Assembly (NCBI GenBank): GCA_023245355.1
Contig: JAHFKN010000004.1
Coordinates: 25,309 to 89,308, forward strand
DNA: 64,000 nt
Source: Candidatus Gottesmanbacteria bacterium
GTDB taxonomy: Bacteria; Patescibacteriota; Microgenomatia; UBA10105; UBA927
Direction of reading: 5' to 3'
The position numbers were made by a program, and so were the translations under genes. Positions 55,024 through 60,708 of the stretch are shown one piece after another. The notes beneath the pieces are model-generated. The model did no database searches and was not told the origin of the DNA. It saw only the letters and a list, made by a program, of their open reading frames with translations. Positions within the stretch are counted from its first letter, which is position 1; every line of letters starts with the position of its first letter.

Positions 55024-55024
55024 G

Positions 55025-55095
55025 TGGACCCGAGGGGAATCGAACCCCTTTTTGAACTATGCCATAGTTCCGTACTACCGGTATACGACGGGCCC
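55025..55095 (-). tRNA. tRNA-Ala (anticodon GGC)
   Basis: Hand-folded. Acceptor GGGCCCG/CGGGTCC with the G3:U70 Ala identity pair, anticodon stem GAACT/AGTTC, loop ATGGCAT, T-arm AGGGG-TTCGATT-CCCCT. No encoded CCA. Confidence 0.8.
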
Positions 55096-55102
55096 TGACA
55101 AG

Positions 55103-55175
55103 TGGACCTGACCGGAGTCGAACCGGTGATCTCCGCAATGCGAATGCGGCGCTCTACCAACTAAGCTACAGGCCC
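55103..55175 (-). tRNA. tRNA-Ala (anticodon CGC)
   Basis: Hand-folded. GGGCCTG acceptor with G3:U70, D-arm GCTTAGTTGGTAGAGC, anticodon stem CCGCA/TGCGG, loop TTCGCAT, T-arm CCGGTTCGACTCCGG. 7 nt from the neighbouring tRNA. Confidence 0.85.
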
Positions 55176-55229: not shown

Positions 55230-56315
55230 CTATTTCAAAAACGAAGTTGGATTGACAGGGGTGCCGTTTTTCCGGACTTCGAAATGCAGATGCGTGCCGG
55301 TTGACCGGCCGGTCGAACCCATTTTGCCGATTACCTGGCCCCGGCTCACCGTGTCCCCCGCCTTCACATACACTTCTGTCATATGAGCGTAGAGCGTTGA
55401 CAATCCGCCGCCGTTATCGATGATTGCGTGCCTGCCATAGCCGTAATTTAAATACTGAACCGATATCACTGTTCCGTCCCCGGCAGCTGTAACCGGCGGC
55501 TGACTGGGATTGGCGATATCAAATGCCATGTGATACCACACGGGATATTGCGTGATGACGCCCACAGTCGGCCAGGAAAACTGCCCGCTTCCTCCTGCCG
55601 AAAGCGGCGCTGCTGCAAACTGCCGCGGAGCGATAGGGGCTGCTTCCGGCATAACGCCGTCAGGCACGACGAGTGTCTGTCCGACGGACAGAGCAAACGT
55701 ATCGAGATCCGCAAAATCATTAAACGGAAAGTTTACGATTTTTTGCGCTTCCGTTTTATACTTCTTGGCGATCGAATACACAGTCTCCCCTTCCCGGACT
55801 TTATGCACCATACCGGTAACAGGAGGAATCTTCAGACTTTGCCCTATAGTCAAACTATCTCTTTTAAGATCATTTGCCCACTTAATACTATCAACTGATA
55901 CGCCGAATTTTTGCGCGACGGTTGATAAGGTATCACCGTTTTGTATCTGGTATGTTATGATTTGATCACGTGGTTTTTCTGACACCTGCGTCTGCACGCC
56001 GTATTCAGATAAATCCAGACTCGTGACAACTGCTGACGGCGGTGTAAAGTCAGCAAGCGCCTGATTCTGCGCCCCGGGATACGCGGTTGCCAAAATGGGC
56101 GCCGCAATAATTGCAGCAAGCACCAATACACTTACGGAAAAATGCAGGAACGGACGCTGATACCCCCCTCTTCTTGCCATGAGGATATCAACCAGCACGT
56201 CTTTATTGGTTTCAAACCAGGTGCCGAACCGCCGGAGTTTACGGGAAAGGTAATGATACCAACCCTTCTGCCACAAGCGGAGATCATCCCTGAGTAATTG
56301 CATTCGTTTTCTCAT
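55230..56315 (-). CDS. LysM-domain M23-family metallopeptidase (peptidoglycan endopeptidase), membrane anchored
   Basis: 361 aa. N-terminal TM helix, two LysM-like segments (GDTLSTVAQKFGVSVDSI; GETVYSIAKKYKTEAQKI), and the M23 catalytic signature HMAFD...GSTGRSTGTHLHFEV. Confidence 0.8.
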   Translation of the reverse strand: MRKRMQLLRDDLRLWQKGWYHYLSRKLRRFGTWFETNKDVLVDILMARRGGYQRPFLHFSVSVLVLAAIIAAPILATAYPGAQNQALADFTPPSAVVTSLDLSEYGVQTQVSEKPRDQIITYQIQNGDTLSTVAQKFGVSVDSIKWANDLKRDSLTIGQSLKIPPVTGMVHKVREGETVYSIAKKYKTEAQKIVNFPFNDFADLDTFALSVGQTLVVPDGVMPEAAPIAPRQFAAAPLSAGGSGQFSWPTVGVITQYPVWYHMAFDIANPSQPPVTAAGDGTVISVQYLNYGYGRHAIIDNGGGLSTLYAHMTEVYVKAGDTVSRGQVIGKMGSTGRSTGTHLHFEVRKNGTPVNPTSFLK

Positions 56316-56571: not shown

Positions 56572-58314
56572 TTATCCCTGCGCCAGACTCTGAAGAAATT
56601 CGGCGTTATCTTTCGTTTTGCCCAGCCTGTCGATAAGCATCTGTGTGCGTTCCTCATCAGAAAGCATGCTCAGCATGTGCCGCAACGTCGTCACTTTTTT
56701 CATGGTGTCTTCCCCTAAAAGCAGCTCATCATGCCGGGTTCCGGATTTGCCGACATCAATAGCCGGGAAAATCCTGCGCTCCTGCAGGGAACGTGACAAG
56801 TGCAGCTCCATGTTGCCGGTGCCTTTAAATTCTTCATAAATCAAATCATCCATGCGGCTGCCGGTTTCGACCAGTGCAGTTCCGATAATCGTAAGCGACC
56901 CTCCGTCCGTAATCCGTTTCAACACCGGCTGTTCGCCTTGAGCTTTTTTCACTTCTTCCTCGGGGGTAACAAATGGCTCATTGCACCGTGCCGCTCCCAG
57001 GAATTTCTTTGCAGGATACAGTGCTGCGGGATCAAATCCTCCGGTAAGCGTGCGTCCTGACGGGTTTACCACCAGGTTATATGCGCGGGCAAGCCGGGTA
57101 ATGGAATCGAGCAGAATGACAACGTCATGCCCCATTTCAATCAACCGTTTAGCCCGGTCCAACGCTACTTCAGCTACACGCGTCTGATGTTCCGGTGATT
57201 CGTCGAAATTAGAAGCATACACTTCGCCTTTCACTGACCGGGAAATGTCCGTGACCTCTTCCGGACGTTCTCCTATTAGCACAGCCATAAGATGTACTTC
57301 CGGATAGTTTGCGGAAATGCCGGCTGCCAATTCCTTGAGAATCGTTGTTTTTCCGGCTTTCGGAGGACTCACGACTAATCCCCGTTGACCGAATCCGATC
57401 GGAGAAAGTAAATCGAGTATACGTGTAGACAACGGTGCTACTCCTGTTTCCAGCCGCAATAACTTGTTAGGATATATCGGCACCAGGTCTTCAAACCGCG
57501 GCCGTTTTTCCATTTGCTCAGCCAACAGATCGTTTACTTTTTCTACTTTAAGTAACCCCCAATACCGCTCGTTATCTTTCGGCTGCCTTGCCTGGCCTTC
57601 TACCATATCGCCGTTCCGCAGTAAAAATCTGCGGATTTGGGATTGGGAGATATATACATCGCGTTCACTGGGCGTATATTTCGGCCGCAAAAATCCATGC
57701 CCGTCGGGCATGGTGTCCAAAACGCCGCGCACTGTTTCTGTCGGAACATCGACATCCGGCGTAAACGCAGTACTGCCTGTATTTTCATTGAAATCCCGTC
57801 TCGGAGCCCGGTCAAACCCGGTATCCCGGGCATACCCCTCGTCGCGTCGGTATCCGCTGCCACCGGAAAACCCGCCTGATCCGCGATGAAAGTCCCGTCC
57901 GCCAAACCGGCTATCGCCTCCGCGGTTGAATCCGCCGCGGTTACCCCGGTCAAATCTGCCTCTGCCGCCGCTTCGGAAATCACGGCGTCCGCCGCGGTCA
58001 TTTCCTTGCGCTGGCTGATACCCACGGTCATTTCCCATAGAGGGAGCACGCACGAAAGCCGGCTGATCTGCATTCACGGCCGGTTCAGCAGCAGGTACGG
58101 TTGTACGTGCGCCTTGCGGTGCCCCGACCAAATCTTCAAGACTCAAGCTGGGCGCTGGCTCTTCGGCGGGTTTTACGGCCTCAGGAGCTTCTACAAATTT
58201 CTCCACGGCTGCTTTCGGCTCCGGCATCGGAGCTTCCGCTTTCGGCGTTTTCTCTTCTGTCGCCTTCGTGGATTTTTTTACTGTAGATGGTTTGCGTGTT
58301 GCTTTAAAAGCCAT
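56572..58314 (-). CDS. rho: Transcription termination factor Rho with an N-terminal RGG-rich insertion
   Basis: 580 aa. RecA-like core motifs ([33 protein letters not shown]). OB-fold region. Residues ~93-175 are an R/G/D/F-rich low-complexity insertion. Confidence 0.9.
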
Positions 58315-58497
58315 AGATATATGCGGGGCTCCCGATATTAGTTGGTTGGTTCAATACGTAAGAAAAACATTAAAAATATAAGAAAGATGCCTGGTACAGA
58401 TTCTTGGCTTAGACATTCATGGGAAAAATCTGAAACTACTACTGAGGAGTCGTAATCTTGCCCTATTAAACCAGAAACAGCCTCCCGTTGTCAAGCG

Positions 58498-60708
58498 TTA
58501 ATTTATCCGTTCGTAAATAACCGTCTCGTTCTGCTGATAGGCTACGCGCGAAAATTGTTCAAATTTCCATTCAGCCAGAGAGGTAAACTTCTGCCGCTCA
58601 ATCGAACCCACGACAATAAAGCGTACATGATACACATCAAGAATACGCTTTGTTTCATCGATATCTTCGGATTCGTAAATTTTGCGCACATCTTCACGGC
58701 GCGGAGACACGACATCATAGGAACCCCTCCATAACCATTCATGGACCGCCCATCCTACGACGGTGGGTACCCCGGTAAACACGGAAAACCGTTCATAATC
58801 CGTATAACTGTCTCCGTCTGCTTCCGCTATGACCGATCTATCATGAGGATCATGCTGCTTGAGCCACATGATTGCACTATAGTCATCAGGATATTCCCTC
58901 ATAAGCCAGGTCAGCCCGTATAATCCGTCATAATTCTTAAGCTCCCCGAAATAACTGCGCACGGAAAACGTCGGATAAATAGCGGTCAGAAAGAACTGAA
59001 ATATGACGAGCACCATACACAGTATCCGCACCCATGACCGTTTCATGATGCCGGCTCCCGGCCGCCGCCCGAAAAACAAATGCATGATCGCGTACGCCGA
59101 AACGATGCTCCACATGATAAATGCCTGATATCCGAGCTTAAACATCGTATTTGAGCGGAAATGCTGGGGATATATGTCTTTAAAATAAAAAAATTCAGGG
59201 AATATGATGAGCGCGAAACAAAATACGTAGAACACTACCAGGATTCTTTCGATATGAGTAAATTTAGTATTCCATACTGTCTTTATGTCATACAGGTGTT
59301 TCATTTTATCTATTTTGCTAATCAGCAGTATGCCGCCGCAGAACCAAAAAAATCCCCAGAGAAGCCACATCATCCATAACGGCGACTGCTGGCACTTCTC
59401 CACTCCTTCAAAAAGAATCGGCCCTACCTTGGTATTGGCAAGAAGCGGCAACGGGCAGTTTACCGCAACCCCGTTGACAAACGATTTAAATTGCAGAAGA
59501 AACGGGAGGCTGACTCCCAGTGCCGCTGCCAGGACAACACCTGTCTCTGTCCCCCACTCCTTCCATGAGCCTTTCAGAAACGGGATATGCGTCATGGTGA
59601 GAAGTATCAGGAACAATCCCAAATAAATCGGCCCGTCCAGTGCATTTGTCATAAGCAGCACGCCGACGAGGAACCCGTATACGCCTAGTGCAAACAGGTC
59701 ATGTTTCTTTTTCCGGATATCAACGCGTCCGAATACCGCAATAAGCAGTCCGATGGCAAGCAGCACGAACGGAATGGATAATACGTGACCGTGAATATCG
59801 GAAACGACGAACGAATAACTGGGAAACTCATGAATGGTAAACGGGATAAAGCGCGTTGCGTTAGCGTACCAGTACCGCGCCATCCCCTCGGGAAGTTTCT
59901 CCCAAAATTCGCCCCAACTCCATGCCAGCTTCCAGAACGGCGCGACATCTTCCCCGGTATACCCGCGGGTAAATGCGTAAATTGTCTGCATATTGCCGGC
60001 CAACGTCACCATGAATGCGGTAAGTATGCCGCCGATTACGGAAAACACACGTTTCCCACGGGCAAAAAACGGGGAGGTATACACGAGCTGGTACCCGATG
60101 GAAAAGCTCATGGTAAGACATAAGGCAAAAATAGTGGAAAGCATGAGGTTGAACGTCACGGCCAGATCGAGCCCGGATAATTTCGTAAGGACCGCCGTGA
60201 CCAGATGCCCGAAATAATAGTAATTTACCGGCAATGGCGGATACCACATGTCCGCGGGAGGAAAATACGTGCTGCGTAATGCCGACTGCATGAAGCCATA
60301 ATCCATAAATTTCTCCAAGCCCCGGATGCTCGGTTCATGCGCTTTCACCCATGACCAAAACAGCAGCGCGATAAAAAATACCGCTTCTTCTATGCCGATT
60401 GTTACAAGCGAGCGCCTCCACTCCCCCTTTTCTTTCTCCTCCGGTGCGGCCTGGTGCAGAATAATACCGATACCAAAAACGGCAATAATCGATCCGATGA
60501 CGACAATCTCGGTAAACGGTGCAATATGCGCCGTACCCAGCACGTAGACGATCCAGGTTACGGCTGCCATGCCGACTGCCTTTGCGAAAAAATATCCGGC
60601 GTCATGCCAACGGGAAAATAACCGCTTCGTAAGCGGATATGCAGCGGCGCCCACAAAAAAAAGCGTCCCCCACCATCGTAAAACCATGAAAAAATCAGTG
60701 AGCGGCAT
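58498..60708 (-). CDS. DUF2298 / 'Chlor_Arch_YYY'-family polytopic membrane protein
   Basis: 736 aa with more than 15 TM helices. Conserved loop FPPADMWYPPLPVNYYYFGH containing the family-name YYY motif. Confidence 0.55.
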   Translation of the reverse strand: MPLTDFFMVLRWWGTLFFVGAAAYPLTKRLFSRWHDAGYFFAKAVGMAAVTWIVYVLGTAHIAPFTEIVVIGSIIAVFGIGIILHQAAPEEKEKGEWRRSLVTIGIEEAVFFIALLFWSWVKAHEPSIRGLEKFMDYGFMQSALRSTYFPPADMWYPPLPVNYYYFGHLVTAVLTKLSGLDLAVTFNLMLSTIFALCLTMSFSIGYQLVYTSPFFARGKRVFSVIGGILTAFMVTLAGNMQTIYAFTRGYTGEDVAPFWKLAWSWGEFWEKLPEGMARYWYANATRFIPFTIHEFPSYSFVVSDIHGHVLSIPFVLLAIGLLIAVFGRVDIRKKKHDLFALGVYGFLVGVLLMTNALDGPIYLGLFLILLTMTHIPFLKGSWKEWGTETGVVLAAALGVSLPFLLQFKSFVNGVAVNCPLPLLANTKVGPILFEGVEKCQQSPLWMMWLLWGFFWFCGGILLISKIDKMKHLYDIKTVWNTKFTHIERILVVFYVFCFALIIFPEFFYFKDIYPQHFRSNTMFKLGYQAFIMWSIVSAYAIMHLFFGRRPGAGIMKRSWVRILCMVLVIFQFFLTAIYPTFSVRSYFGELKNYDGLYGLTWLMREYPDDYSAIMWLKQHDPHDRSVIAEADGDSYTDYERFSVFTGVPTVVGWAVHEWLWRGSYDVVSPRREDVRKIYESEDIDETKRILDVYHVRFIVVGSIERQKFTSLAEWKFEQFSRVAYQQNETVIYERIN

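Follow-up and report, generated by a model that had tools for sequence, protein, structure and literature searches.

The rho locus

The window analysed here is a 64,000-nucleotide stretch of a Candidatus Gottesmanbacteria genome, and the gene under study encodes a protein of 580 aa on its minus strand. This protein had been named transcription termination factor Rho in an initial annotation, and the name is borne out by Pfam, by NCBIfam equivalogs and by matches to solved structures. The gene and the features of its conserved part are as follows.

56572..58314 (stop codon included), minus strand: rho, 580 aa, recognised from the open reading frame, Pfam, NCBIfam and PDB matches and functional residues
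58329..58333, minus strand: candidate Shine-Dalgarno sequence GGGAG, 14 nt upstream of the ATG (a long spacing, weak evidence)
57526..57729, minus strand: OB-fold primary RNA-binding domain, aa 196-263, from Pfam PF07497
56743..57423, minus strand: RecA-type ATPase domain, aa 298-524, from Pfam PF00006

Screening of the whole protein with Pfam gave Rho_RNA_bind (PF07497) at aa 196-263 with an E-value of 1e-27 and ATP-synt_ab (PF00006) at aa 298-524. The cut-offs of two NCBIfam equivalogs are exceeded (NF006886, 539.1 bits against 315; TIGR00767, 523.9 bits against 509.45), and the top matches among solved structures are Rho throughout, down to an E-value of 1e-121. Walker A and B, the catalytic Glu, the Arg valve and the Arg finger are all kept with respect to E. 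coli Rho, and the sole changes among the ATPase-domain functional residues checked are K283 to R in the Q-loop and K326 to R in the R-loop. The PBS equivalents of E. coli F64, R66, D78, Y80, E108, R109 and Y110 are retained as well, and the position of E. coli F62 is occupied by His206, which is invariant in 108 homologues. By its family scores and these residues, the product is a genuine Rho with its catalytic, PBS and SBS residues intact. As a Rho, it would be expected to form a hexameric ring whose ATPase depends on RNA and which acts as a helicase and terminator.

The protein starts with the basic peptide MAFKATRK. M1, A2, F3 and A5 are at least 90% conserved in the 108 homologues, and starts of the M-[AP]-[FY]-[KR] type were found across Microgenomates loci. 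The conservation of this peptide therefore supports this ATG as the true start.

An N-terminal extension without a detectable helix bundle

A total of 195 residues precede the OB fold in the Gottesmanbacteria Rho, versus about 50 in E. coli. Two modules and three short conserved elements are found in this extension.

58291..58314, minus strand: basic N-terminal peptide MAFKATRK, aa 1-8, conserved in homologues
58039..58314, minus strand: IDR module 1, aa 1-92, K/E/P/A/V/T-rich with net charge 0, from composition and pLDDT of 35-51
58117..58146, minus strand: short linear motif, aa 57-66, consensus S-V-[ED]-[ED]-L-V-G-x-P, from conservation
57790..58038, minus strand: IDR module 2, the R/G/D and aromatic tract, aa 93-175, from composition, aromatic spacing, dN/dS and pLDDT
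57730..57765, minus strand: nearly invariant linker into the first OB-fold strand, aa 184-195, from conservation and a rise in pLDDT

The tract indeed lies where it had been placed, with a Lys/Glu/Pro-rich N-terminal part on one side and the conserved core on the other (57790-58038, which is aa 93-175). The Rho_N domain (PF07498) was not found in the whole protein, and aa 1-200 matched no Pfam family at E<=10. Neither was Rho_N found in the 120 closest homologues, nor in the N-termini of 21 diverse Microgenomates Rho proteins at E<=1. The match to the NCBIfam Rho profile begins only at profile position 50, the global alignment to E. coli Rho scatters the bundle across gaps, and no helices were predicted in aa 1-190 by AlphaFold2 (AF2). 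The Pfam, NCBIfam and AF2 results, together with those from the Microgenomates N-termini, speak against a cryptic helix bundle, and this possibility was rejected.

In Rho with a classical NID (D'Heygere 2013, Boudvillain group), an inserted segment separates the helix bundle from the OB fold, whereas Type 2d Rho has no detectable N-terminal domain and carries over 25 additional aa ahead of the RNA-binding domain (Moreira et al. 2024). Rho_N is present in typical Rho and is not required, as Type 4 and Type 2d Rho are without it. The Gottesmanbacteria protein shares with the classical NID a large extra hydrophilic segment directly ahead of the OB fold, but no helix bundle is recognisable N-terminal of this segment, where conservation is confined to the basic peptide and the SVEDLVGxP motif. 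The tract thus belongs to an N-terminal extension of Type 2d, a class assigned here with Pfam and NCBIfam profiles in place of the HMMs of Moreira et al., and not to a NID between two folded domains; the term insertion, under which it was first described, has to be given up in that sense.

Disorder was judged from AF2 pLDDT, from hydropathy and charge, and from composition. In the AF2 model, built with a 108-sequence MSA, pLDDT is below 50 at aa 1-3, 9-11, 14-42, 44-59, 62-173 and 175-181, DSSP assigns no element to these stretches, and the single secondary-structure element in aa 1-190 comprises three residues (59-61) within the SVEDLVGxP motif. The tract itself shows no fold, with pLDDT of 35-41, and its mean hydropathy of 0.313 is far under the Uversky boundary of 0.448. 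None of I, L, V, C or W occurs in its 83 residues; therefore its composition is incompatible with a hydrophobic core. The tract is predicted to be intrinsically disordered, in agreement with the first description of an R/G-rich disordered segment, and the folded domain that would have spoken against that description did not appear in the model.

Module 1 differs from the tract in composition (K 9.7%, R 2.9%, P 14%, A 13% and V 10% over 110 homologues). In its SVEDLVGxP motif, G64 is invariant and D61 at least 90% conserved among 108 homologues, and both G64 and P66 reach at least 90% in the 21 diverse Microgenomates Rho proteins. A regular expression for the motif matched 59 of 73 loci, with variants visible in several others. 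In the linker, D187, V190, T192, E193 and T194 are invariant in the 108 homologues and pLDDT climbs from 64 to 88; its position corresponds to that of the EDIF linker of E. coli and of the EDDV motif of Actinomycetota.

Composition and pattern of the tract

The tract consists of G (23), R (19), D (10), F (8), S (5), N (4), Y (3) and a few other residues, and K is absent from it. R and G account for 42 of the 83 residues, where 12% would be expected from the remaining window proteins (binomial tail 1.1e-17). Up to 35 R+G fall within 60 aa of Rho, while no other protein of the window exceeds 18, a 10,844-aa ORF included. Shannon entropy is 3.06 bits in the tract versus 4.05 in the Rho core. The net charge is +8, with 36% of the residues charged.

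The tract had been described as rich in RGG and FG repeats. Motif counts are RGG 3, GGR 3, RG 7, GR 4, RDF 3, GF 3 and FG 1, so the FG part of this description does not hold; the aromatic signal is F or Y at regular spacing. RGG and RG boxes are classified by definitions that reportedly go back to Thandapani et al. 2013, with tri-RGG, di-RGG, tri-RG and di-RG classes and spacers of 0-4 residues. By these definitions the tract has a single di-RGG, RGGFNRGG at aa 126, and a single tri-RG at aa 118, and a tri-RGG was not found in it. The RGG part of the description is correct for this protein and fails for the clade, as the strict motifs are poorly conserved (di-RGG in 30 of 116 homologues, tri-RG in 12 of 116).

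The tract can be read as 11 degenerate units of 5-9 residues each (one of 14), every one closed by F or Y. The spacing of F/Y is about seven residues, with a CV of 0.31 versus 0.80 in shuffled sequences (p<0.001), and it is non-random (p<0.05) in 68% of 110 homologues although the sequences drift. Over the same 110 homologues, the tract contains 19.2% R versus 0.1% K, 7.7% D versus 1.9% E, 6.6% N and 4.6% Q. Short islands, RRDF, GGYRR and RRD, are conserved within it. What is conserved in the clade is the R/G/D composition, the use of Arg and not Lys, and an F or Y every seven residues or so, rather than an RGG box.

Relatives and selection

The identical Rho protein was found on three contigs, and the same tract is kept in proteins of 97%, 93% and 82-85% identity from independent samples. 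More than 100 full-length homologues, some of only 60% identity, keep the reading frame of the extension open. Because of this retention and the identical protein on three contigs, the tract is not an assembly insertion, a possibility raised with its first description, but a genuine part of the gene. Tandem Repeats Finder detected no DNA-level tandem repeat in 57500-58400. Recent slippage or an assembly artefact was rejected, as the periodicity exists at the protein level alone.

The tract gave dN/dS values of 0.053, 0.088 and 0.126 in comparison with the close relatives L081, L083 and L013. Module 1 is looser than the tract, with 0.21-0.30 against close relatives, and values are below 1 everywhere. 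The tract is under purifying selection. Its sequence identity decays fast at larger distances (dN of 0.5-0.8 at 60-78% overall identity), and selection acts on its pattern rather than on the exact sequence.

A phmmer search with aa 1-195 against 1.84 billion representatives returned a single irrelevant match, an Ala/Lys repeat protein, and the same query against PDB sequences returned one meaningless match (E 3.5). The extension has no sequence family detectable by these searches beyond close relatives.

The linker before the OB fold ranges from 44 to 240 aa across Microgenomates. Extensions of sister Microgenomates are poor in R and G and often net negative; the RG tract is therefore not required for Rho function in Microgenomates. 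R and G contents of the extension correlate with the GC content of the locus (Spearman 0.55 and 0.51), so that the composition is partly due to mutational bias. Two members of lower GC, L002 with 43% and L012 with 39%, still have 8-11% R and 11% G in their extensions. A pure GC-content explanation was accepted in part; it leaves the exclusion of K, the aromatic spacing and the low dN/dS unaccounted for.

Comparison with known disordered regions

Eukaryotic RGG/RG and FG/RG domains (FUS, hnRNP, Ddx4, LAF-1) are R/G-rich and disordered, prefer Arg over Lys, carry evenly placed aromatics and adjoin a core that is an RNA helicase or binds RNA. The tract resembles them in all these respects and is joined to an RNA helicase core. 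It differs in having no homology to them, in its high Asp content and in the poor conservation of di-RGG and tri-RG in its clade, and an arginine methylation system is not implied for it.

That additions to Rho of similar composition alter RNA binding in other bacteria, as the initial annotation had pointed out, or drive phase separation there is documented (PMC13650167, PMC11347177, PMC13269538, bioRxiv 10.1101/2025.08.28.672908). In M. tuberculosis Rho, NMR and cryo-EM have shown the R/G-rich NID to be an IDR; it contacts nucleic acid and is required for the use of 1759 versus 47 Rut sites (PMC13650167), and R-rich insertions in the Rho of M. luteus and M. tuberculosis raise RNA affinity (PMC11347177). 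These NIDs are, like the tract, hydrophilic Arg/Gly/Asp-rich disordered segments immediately N-terminal of the OB fold, with an acidic motif right before it (EDDV there, DVDVPTE in Gottesmanbacteria). The phmmer alignment to the M. tuberculosis Rho chain 7oqh runs from the core into the tract, from query aa 91 and chain residue 153 onward. However, the NIDs of these two species follow a recognisable helix bundle (Type 2b/2c, against Type 2d here), their genomes are of 65-70% GC and the present one of about 50%, and the regular aromatic spacing of the tract is not described for actinobacterial NIDs in the literature consulted. Homology to actinobacterial NIDs beyond composition was not found by phmmer among the 1.84 billion representatives.

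Type 2d Rho, as defined by Moreira et al. and represented in Microbacterium oleivorans, many PVC and Spirochaetota, is similar in lacking Rho_N and in having more than 25 extra residues that are predicted to be disordered. The motifs of these authors (APA, QN, RxR, EDDV) fit loosely, module 1 being APA-like and module 2 RxR-like. Their survey covers 2730 genomes, and Patescibacteria/CPR are absent from its main text. The IDR of B. thetaiotaomicron Rho (BtRho) is composed of a KE-rich subdomain, a conserved element and a Q/N-rich subdomain, and phase-separates on starvation. It shares with the Gottesmanbacteria extension a K/E-rich first module, short charged motifs and a low-complexity second module N-terminal of the OB fold; it differs in its size of about 300 aa, in its location between helix bundle and OB fold, and in its second module, which is Q/N-rich (prion-like) and not R/G/aromatic. 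Repeats in Lachnospiraceae Rho, YQSRGD in Clostridium symbiosum and RNYQD in Blautia obeum, also combine an aromatic residue with R, D and G/N/Q in units that occur about 5-14 times. They are clear tandem duplications, whereas the Gottesmanbacteria units are degenerate and without a DNA repeat; the likeness looks like convergence on units of R, D and an aromatic residue.

A literature search for termination factor Rho in Patescibacteria found no paper. The Gottesmanbacteria arm is a new lineage case of the disordered RNA-binding regions of Rho known from mycobacteria and Bacteroides. There is growing evidence that disordered segments added to Rho tune termination across the genome in a lineage-specific way, through the choice of Rut sites in M. 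tuberculosis and through stress condensation in Bacteroides and mycobacteria. The present case adds the candidate phyla radiation, a group with very small genomes that was not discussed in published surveys. Genome reduction was previously tied to loss of Rho. Sister lineages with short or R/G-poor extensions and one R/G/aromatic subclade form a compact natural series in which features for RNA capture and for condensation could be tested.

Proposed role of the tract and alternative explanations

We propose that the tract probably serves as a flexible, multivalent auxiliary RNA-binding arm, the second module of the 195-residue extension of a functional Rho. Composition and analogy are what suggest RNA binding and condensation by the tract. 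The extension occupies the place of the canonical N-terminal helix bundle and, as it is attached just upstream of the OB fold, its six copies would decorate the crown of the hexamer that bears the primary RNA-binding site. Arg side chains could touch the backbone and bases of RNA, with Gly giving flexibility. The arm may improve the capture of nascent RNA and widen the choice of Rut sites open to Rho, effects that experiments have demonstrated for the disordered NID of M. tuberculosis Rho. In E. coli Rho the basic N-terminal domain helps to bind RNA, and a '2d region' might take over its function; the arm would in this way make up for the loss of the basic helix bundle. The use of Arg and not Lys together with evenly spaced aromatics would constitute a sticker-and-spacer architecture, and RNA-dependent self-association or condensation is a plausible, less certain, second function.

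The poor conservation of strict RGG/RG motifs in the clade counts against an RNA arm. The ten Asp residues and a net charge of only +8 count against a pure polycation. The rationale of GC-rich, structured RNA offered for actinobacterial NIDs suits a genome of about 50% GC less well.

Condensation may also be the main job of the tract, a reading that we regard as possible though doubtful. Arg-aromatic stickers on six arms per hexamer would then form RNA-dependent condensates under some stress, which would raise Rho concentration locally and boost termination at weak sites, and RNA capture by the single hexamer would be secondary. A sticker-spacer grammar in eukaryotic RNA-binding proteins is said to have been laid out by Wang et al. 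2018 in Cell and Martin et al. 2020 in Science. The tract follows that pattern, with even F/Y, Arg over Lys and Gly/Ser/Asn and other polar spacers conserved as a pattern. IDRs of mycobacterial and Bacteroides Rho drive RNA-modulated LLPS, shown for B. thetaiotaomicron and four mycobacteria, and droplet formation has been predicted for 2d regions (Moreira et al.). However, the tract is short in comparison with typical condensate drivers (83 aa with 11 aromatics), the interspersed Asp may cut its valence, and the very small size of CPR cells makes the physiological sense of condensates uncertain.

It is unlikely that the extension acts mainly in protein docking, with RNA polymerase, NusG/NusA, a ribosomal protein or a CPR-specific partner, through the SVEDLVGxP motif and the basic N-terminus as short linear motifs, and that the RG tract is a spacer or secondary contact. 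The SVEDLVGxP motif and the basic N-terminus are conserved in Gottesman-, Levy-, Woese- and Daviesbacteria, even where the extension is only 45-70 aa, such conserved islands in IDRs are typical of docking motifs, and short conserved charged motifs govern the condensation of BtRho. Docking would explain these motifs but not the RG tract, which is specific to the subclade, and the window neighbours, a DUF2298 membrane protein and a LysM/M23 peptidase, suggest no partner for the extension.

The view of the tract as tolerated, near-neutral low-complexity filler, shaped by slippage and GC-biased mutation in a variable linker, is improbable. It draws on the length range of this linker, on a composition that follows GC, on the fast decay of identity and on the failure of phmmer to find homologues of the extension. 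Against it, dN/dS of the tract among close relatives (0.05-0.13) lies under that of the neighbouring module, and K is nearly excluded from the tract (0.1% versus 19% R), yet makes up 9.7% of module 1 in the same proteins. The aromatic spacing is non-random and conserved along with the islands, there is no DNA tandem repeat that points to recent slippage, and low-GC L002 and L012 keep their R and G.

A prion-like amyloid switch, as in the C. botulinum Rho insertion, had been brought up with the first description and is suggested by that precedent and by the low complexity, predicted disorder and Gly/Tyr/Asn content of the tract; with Q+N at 6 of 83 residues (7%), N and Q likewise low over the 110 homologues, 36% charged residues and R/D alternating throughout, we consider it very improbable and dropped it. 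Scarcely tenable is initiation within the ORF, at Met93 or close ahead of the OB fold, with the upstream part as a 5' leader: the Shine-Dalgarno candidate stands 14 nt from the ATG, and some NCBI records of related genomes give a Rho of 402-472 aa whose first residue lies shortly ahead of the tract or within it (P0064, P0081, P0120), but Met93 is not conserved and was rejected, a frame of 180-210 codons upstream of the OB fold is open in essentially all relatives with frame-preserving indels, MAFKATRK is conserved, and dN/dS is well under 1 in both modules. Public annotations of this sort hide the extension of these rho genes.

An insertion in the ATPase domain

A further lineage-specific feature was found downstream of the arm.

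56914..56982, minus strand: 23-aa lineage-specific insertion, aa 445-467, from an alignment gap against solved Rho structures and E. coli Rho

The insertion sits between GAAR and GGSLT and is equivalent to E. coli 306-309. E. coli and 57 Microgenomates loci have four residues in the loop between these two motifs, versus 12-50 in the RG-rich subclade (L001-L018) and 9-41, with a mode of 27, in the 120 closest homologues. A short helix at aa 451-458 is predicted inside it by AF2 (pLDDT about 70-84), and the topology suggests a position on the outer rim of the hexamer. Charge pairing between the acidic insertion and the basic tract was considered and dropped, as neither sequence nor charge of the insertion is conserved in the subclade. 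The RG-rich subclade possesses both the RG tract and the variable ATPase-loop insertion. It is conceivable, though speculative and rather unlikely, that this Gottesmanbacteria subclade rebuilt the RNA-loading face of Rho, with the helix bundle replaced by the two-module IDR, whose second module would be a eukaryote-like Arg/aromatic sticker-spacer domain under purifying selection, and that, together with the loop insertion, this lets RNA-dependent condensation or association between hexamers control termination. If so, this Rho would provide a minimal natural model of RGG-type phase separation in bacteria, in an ultra-small, host-dependent cell.

Identification of rho and its conserved core

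The region at 57790-58038 lies in a single long ORF that makes biological sense (56572-58314, minus strand) and corresponds exactly to residues 93-175 (83 aa) of the encoded 580-aa Rho. The Pfam domains Rho_RNA_bind (residues 196-263) and the nucleotide-binding domain ATP-synt_ab (298-524) are present, both NCBIfam Rho equivalogs score above their curated cut-offs (539 vs 315 bits and 524 vs 509 bits), and the best matches among solved structures are all Rho hexamers, from Thermus, Thermotoga, M. tuberculosis and E. coli. In an alignment to the 419-aa E. coli protein, whose sequence agrees with the PDB alignments, the Walker A and B motifs, catalytic Glu, Arg valve, Arg finger and primary-binding-site residues are kept. 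Only three core substitutions are notable: F62 to His206, K283 to Arg in the Q-loop and K326 to Arg in the R-loop. Judged by these sequence features, the protein is a functional-looking Rho. His206 is invariant in all 108 aligned homologues and in 21 diverse Microgenomates Rho proteins.

57697-57699, minus strand: His206, equivalent of the primary-binding-site Phe62 of E. coli (GHGFLR vs GFGFLR in E. coli)

Composition and aromatic spacing of the RG tract

The tract contains 23 Gly, 19 Arg, 10 Asp, 8 Phe, 5 Ser, 4 Asn and 3 Tyr residues, and is devoid of Ile, Leu, Val, Cys, Trp and Lys. Arg and Gly make up 42 of its 83 residues, against a share of 12% in the window's remaining proteins (binomial tail 1e-17). 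In Rho up to 35 of them fall within one 60-residue stretch, and at most 18 do so elsewhere in the window, even in an ORF of 10,844 aa. No tandem repeat was found in the DNA of the tract. The compositional bias is real, and the Arg/Gly-rich low-complexity segment reported in the initial annotation is confirmed. Its description as RGG/FG repeats holds only in part: one di-RGG and one tri-RG are present under the usual motif definitions, but FG occurs once only. Most homologues lack such strict motifs: di-RGG occurs in 30/116 and tri-RG in 12/116. The tract (module 2) and the preceding residues 1-92 (module 1) are sharply unlike in composition.

Mean composition of modules 1 and 2 in 110 homologues
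Residue: module 1; module 2
K: 9.7%; 0.1%
R: 2.9%; 19.2%
G: 2.8%; 26.6%
E: 9.1%; 1.9%
D: 4.8%; 7.7%
F+Y: 2.7%; 12.1%
I+L+V: 15.8%; 1.3%

When module 2 is cut after every aromatic residue, 11 degenerate units appear: PSMGNDRGY, a second unit of 14 residues, RSGGRGRF, DRGNRGGF, NRGGDSRF, GGRDF, HRGSGGF, SGGSGY, RRDEGY, ARDTGF and DRAPRRDF. The aromatic spacing is far evener than chance (CV 0.31 vs 0.80 in 1000 shuffles, p<0.001), and even spacing at p<0.05 is shared by 68% of the 110 homologues despite their differing sequences. This pattern was missed in the initial annotation. It resembles the sticker-and-spacer organization of eukaryotic RNA-binding low-complexity domains, in which even aromatics are combined with Arg over Lys and with Gly/Ser/Asn spacers; Rho module 2 has all three. 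This grammar was reportedly set out by Wang et al. (2018, Cell), Martin et al. (2020, Science) and Nott et al. (2015, Mol Cell).

Disorder and anatomy of the N-terminal extension

AlphaFold2, run with a 108-sequence alignment, assigned nearly the whole of residues 1-181 a pLDDT below 50 and placed no secondary structure there; the OB fold and ATPase domain reached pLDDT 80-92. The mean hydropathy of the RG tract is far under the charge-hydropathy boundary. With low pLDDT, low hydropathy and no aliphatics, the tract is predicted to be disordered, as had been proposed, and no folded domain was recognized in it. The Rho_N helix bundle was not matched by the whole protein or by residues 1-200 (E<=10), among the domains precomputed for 120 homologues, or in 21 diverse Microgenomates N-termini (E<=1); positions before 50 of the NCBIfam Rho profile stay unaligned, and AlphaFold2 predicted no helices in the extension. 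The earlier label of insertion cannot be kept under the strict definition of an N-terminal insertion domain (NID), which calls for a flanking helix bundle that is absent here. Five elements were distinguished in residues 1-195.

Elements of the N-terminal extension (all minus strand)
aa 1-8: conserved basic peptide MAFKATRK
aa 1-92: module 1, rich in K/E/P/A/V/T
aa 57-66 (58117-58146): consensus motif S-V-[ED]-[ED]-L-V-G-x-P, inside module 1
aa 93-175: module 2, the R/G/D/aromatic tract
aa 184-195: nearly invariant linker leading into the first OB strand

At least 59 of 73 Microgenomates loci have the S-V-[ED]-[ED]-L-V-G-x-P motif, including loci with an extension as short as 45-70 aa, and it is conserved together with the preceding basic peptide in Gottesman-, Levy-, Woese- and Daviesbacteria (L001-L078, the compared rho loci). 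It may be a remnant of the helix bundle, or else serve in docking. Taken together, sequence comparison and the predicted model describe a disordered Arg/Gly/aromatic arm that is under constraint and joins the OB fold directly on its upstream side, with no helix bundle.

Translation and selection

An assembly insertion, which would have explained the tract away, is contradicted by identical Rho proteins on three contigs, by proteins of 97%, 93% and 82-85% identity from other samples that also carry the tract, and by more than 100 homologues of 500-600 aa in which the long frame is open upstream of the OB fold. At the N-terminus MAFKATRK, M1, A2, F3 and A5 are more than 90% conserved. Nei-Gojobori dN/dS against three close relatives was 0.053, 0.088 and 0.126 for the RG tract, 0.30, 0.26 and 0.21 for residues 1-92, and at most 0.03 for the folded core; against one relative (L081) the tract shows 20 synonymous and 4 non-synonymous differences. 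On this evidence the tract is translated and under constraint. Between more distant homologues its composition persists and its sequence is replaced (dN 0.5-0.8). A possible Shine-Dalgarno sequence, GGGAG, precedes the ATG by 14 nt on the minus strand and is weak evidence alone.

Three Gottesmanbacteria Rho records in NCBI (P0064, P0081, P0120) are 402-472 aa long and lack the disordered extension, as each begins at an internal Met that lies within the low-complexity tract or shortly ahead of it. Such gene calls are probably mis-annotations, on the evidence of frame, N-terminus and dN/dS in other homologues.

Phylogenetic distribution

Among relatives that carry a name, the nearer ones are Candidatus Gottesmanbacteria and the more distant ones Levy-, Woese- and Daviesbacteria; all are Microgenomates within Patescibacteria/CPR. 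Many loci, including L002, L003 and L005, come from records titled 'uncultured Gammaproteobacteria bacterium' (binchicken, co-assembly TPA; GTDB-representative MAGs) and encode a Microgenomates-type Rho; the titles are probably a taxonomic mislabel at submission level.

Every compared Rho has an N-terminal extension, of 44-240 aa. R/G-rich extensions are confined to the MA[FY][KR]A[ST]... subclade (L001-L018), with a similar tract in L056; the remaining extensions are rich in S/T/P/A/D/E and often net negative. The R and G contents of the extension correlate with locus GC (Spearman 0.55 and 0.51; window GC ~50%), and therefore mutational bias contributes to the composition. Subclade members of lower GC keep the tract (L002, 43%; L012, 39%), and GC accounts neither for the exclusion of Lys nor for the aromatic patterning.

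Insertion in the ATPase domain

Alignments of Rho to solved structures break between residues 444 and 467.

56914-56982, minus strand: lineage-specific loop insertion between GAAR and GGSLT, aa 445-467

This loop has 27 residues vs 4 in E. coli (NVEE, residues 306-309). It has the canonical 4 residues in 57 Microgenomates loci, 12-50 in all members of the RG-rich subclade (those of L011 and L016-L018 read from the sequences), and 9-41 with mode 27 in the 120 closest homologues. AlphaFold2 places a short helix at 451-458 with moderate confidence, and dN/dS of the loop is low among close relatives. The loop would lie on the outer rim of the ring, because a helix leaves the pore-facing Q-loop and a strand returns to the pore-facing R-loop. 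The insertion is larger than the ATPase-domain insertions of Moreira et al. 2024, which are only 5-18 aa in 30 sequences. It co-occurs with the RG tract, which may have a functional reason or reflect shared ancestry alone.

Relation to known Rho additions and possible role

About 30-40% of Rho factors have large taxon-specific N-terminal additions, enriched in R/G/D/N and predicted to be disordered and droplet-forming. The present Rho fits Type 2d of Moreira et al. 2024 (7.8% of sequences), which has an additional region and no detectable N-terminal domain. A literature search turned up no study connecting Rho with Patescibacteria, and the main text of Moreira et al. 2024 mentions neither CPR nor aromatic patterning. 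Disordered Rho additions are known, and the protein holds nothing surprising to a Rho specialist in that respect; the lineage is new, and its particulars are sticker spacing, Arg-only usage and loss of the bundle.

The N-terminal domains of Rho form the crown that carries the primary RNA-binding site, which six arms would therefore surround. The basic helix bundle of E. coli Rho binds RNA backbone non-specifically, and removal of its first 27 residues abolishes RNA binding. NMR and cryo-EM show the R/G-rich NID of M. tuberculosis Rho to be disordered; it binds nucleic acid while staying unfolded, and is required for almost all in vitro-selected Rut sites (1759 vs 47) and for structured sites (PMC13650167). 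By analogy, we lean towards the RG tract being a fuzzy multivalent auxiliary RNA-binding arm that would compensate for the missing bundle and widen substrate capture. A docking region is plausible for the conserved SVEDLVGxP motif and does not fit the RG tract itself. RNA-dependent condensation through Arg-aromatic stickers would be a second, more doubtful layer on the auxiliary arm; it has been demonstrated for mycobacterial Rho and for the differently composed disordered region of Bacteroides thetaiotaomicron Rho. Neutral filler is disfavoured by dN/dS, Lys exclusion and patterning. The prion-like behaviour raised in the initial annotation is not supported, as Q+N is only 7%, and an untranslated leader conflicts with the frame, the N-terminus and dN/dS.

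Gene neighbourhood

Relatives whose Rho is 82-93% identical share the order DUF2298-rho-LysM/M23, and no functional tie of the flanking genes to Rho is evident.

Genes around rho
58498-60708, minus strand: DUF2298 membrane protein, 736 aa, upstream
55230-56315, minus strand: LysM + Peptidase_M23 protein, 361 aa, downstream
55024-55175, minus strand: two adjacent tRNA-Ala genes (anticodons GGC and CGC), between the LysM/M23 gene and the giant ORF
22105-54639, minus strand: giant ORF, 10,844 aa, two genes downstream

No Pfam family was matched at E<=1e-5 in the first 10,000 residues of the giant ORF, and relatives have gene calls of 9,797, 12,670 and at least 4,426 aa at the syntenic position.
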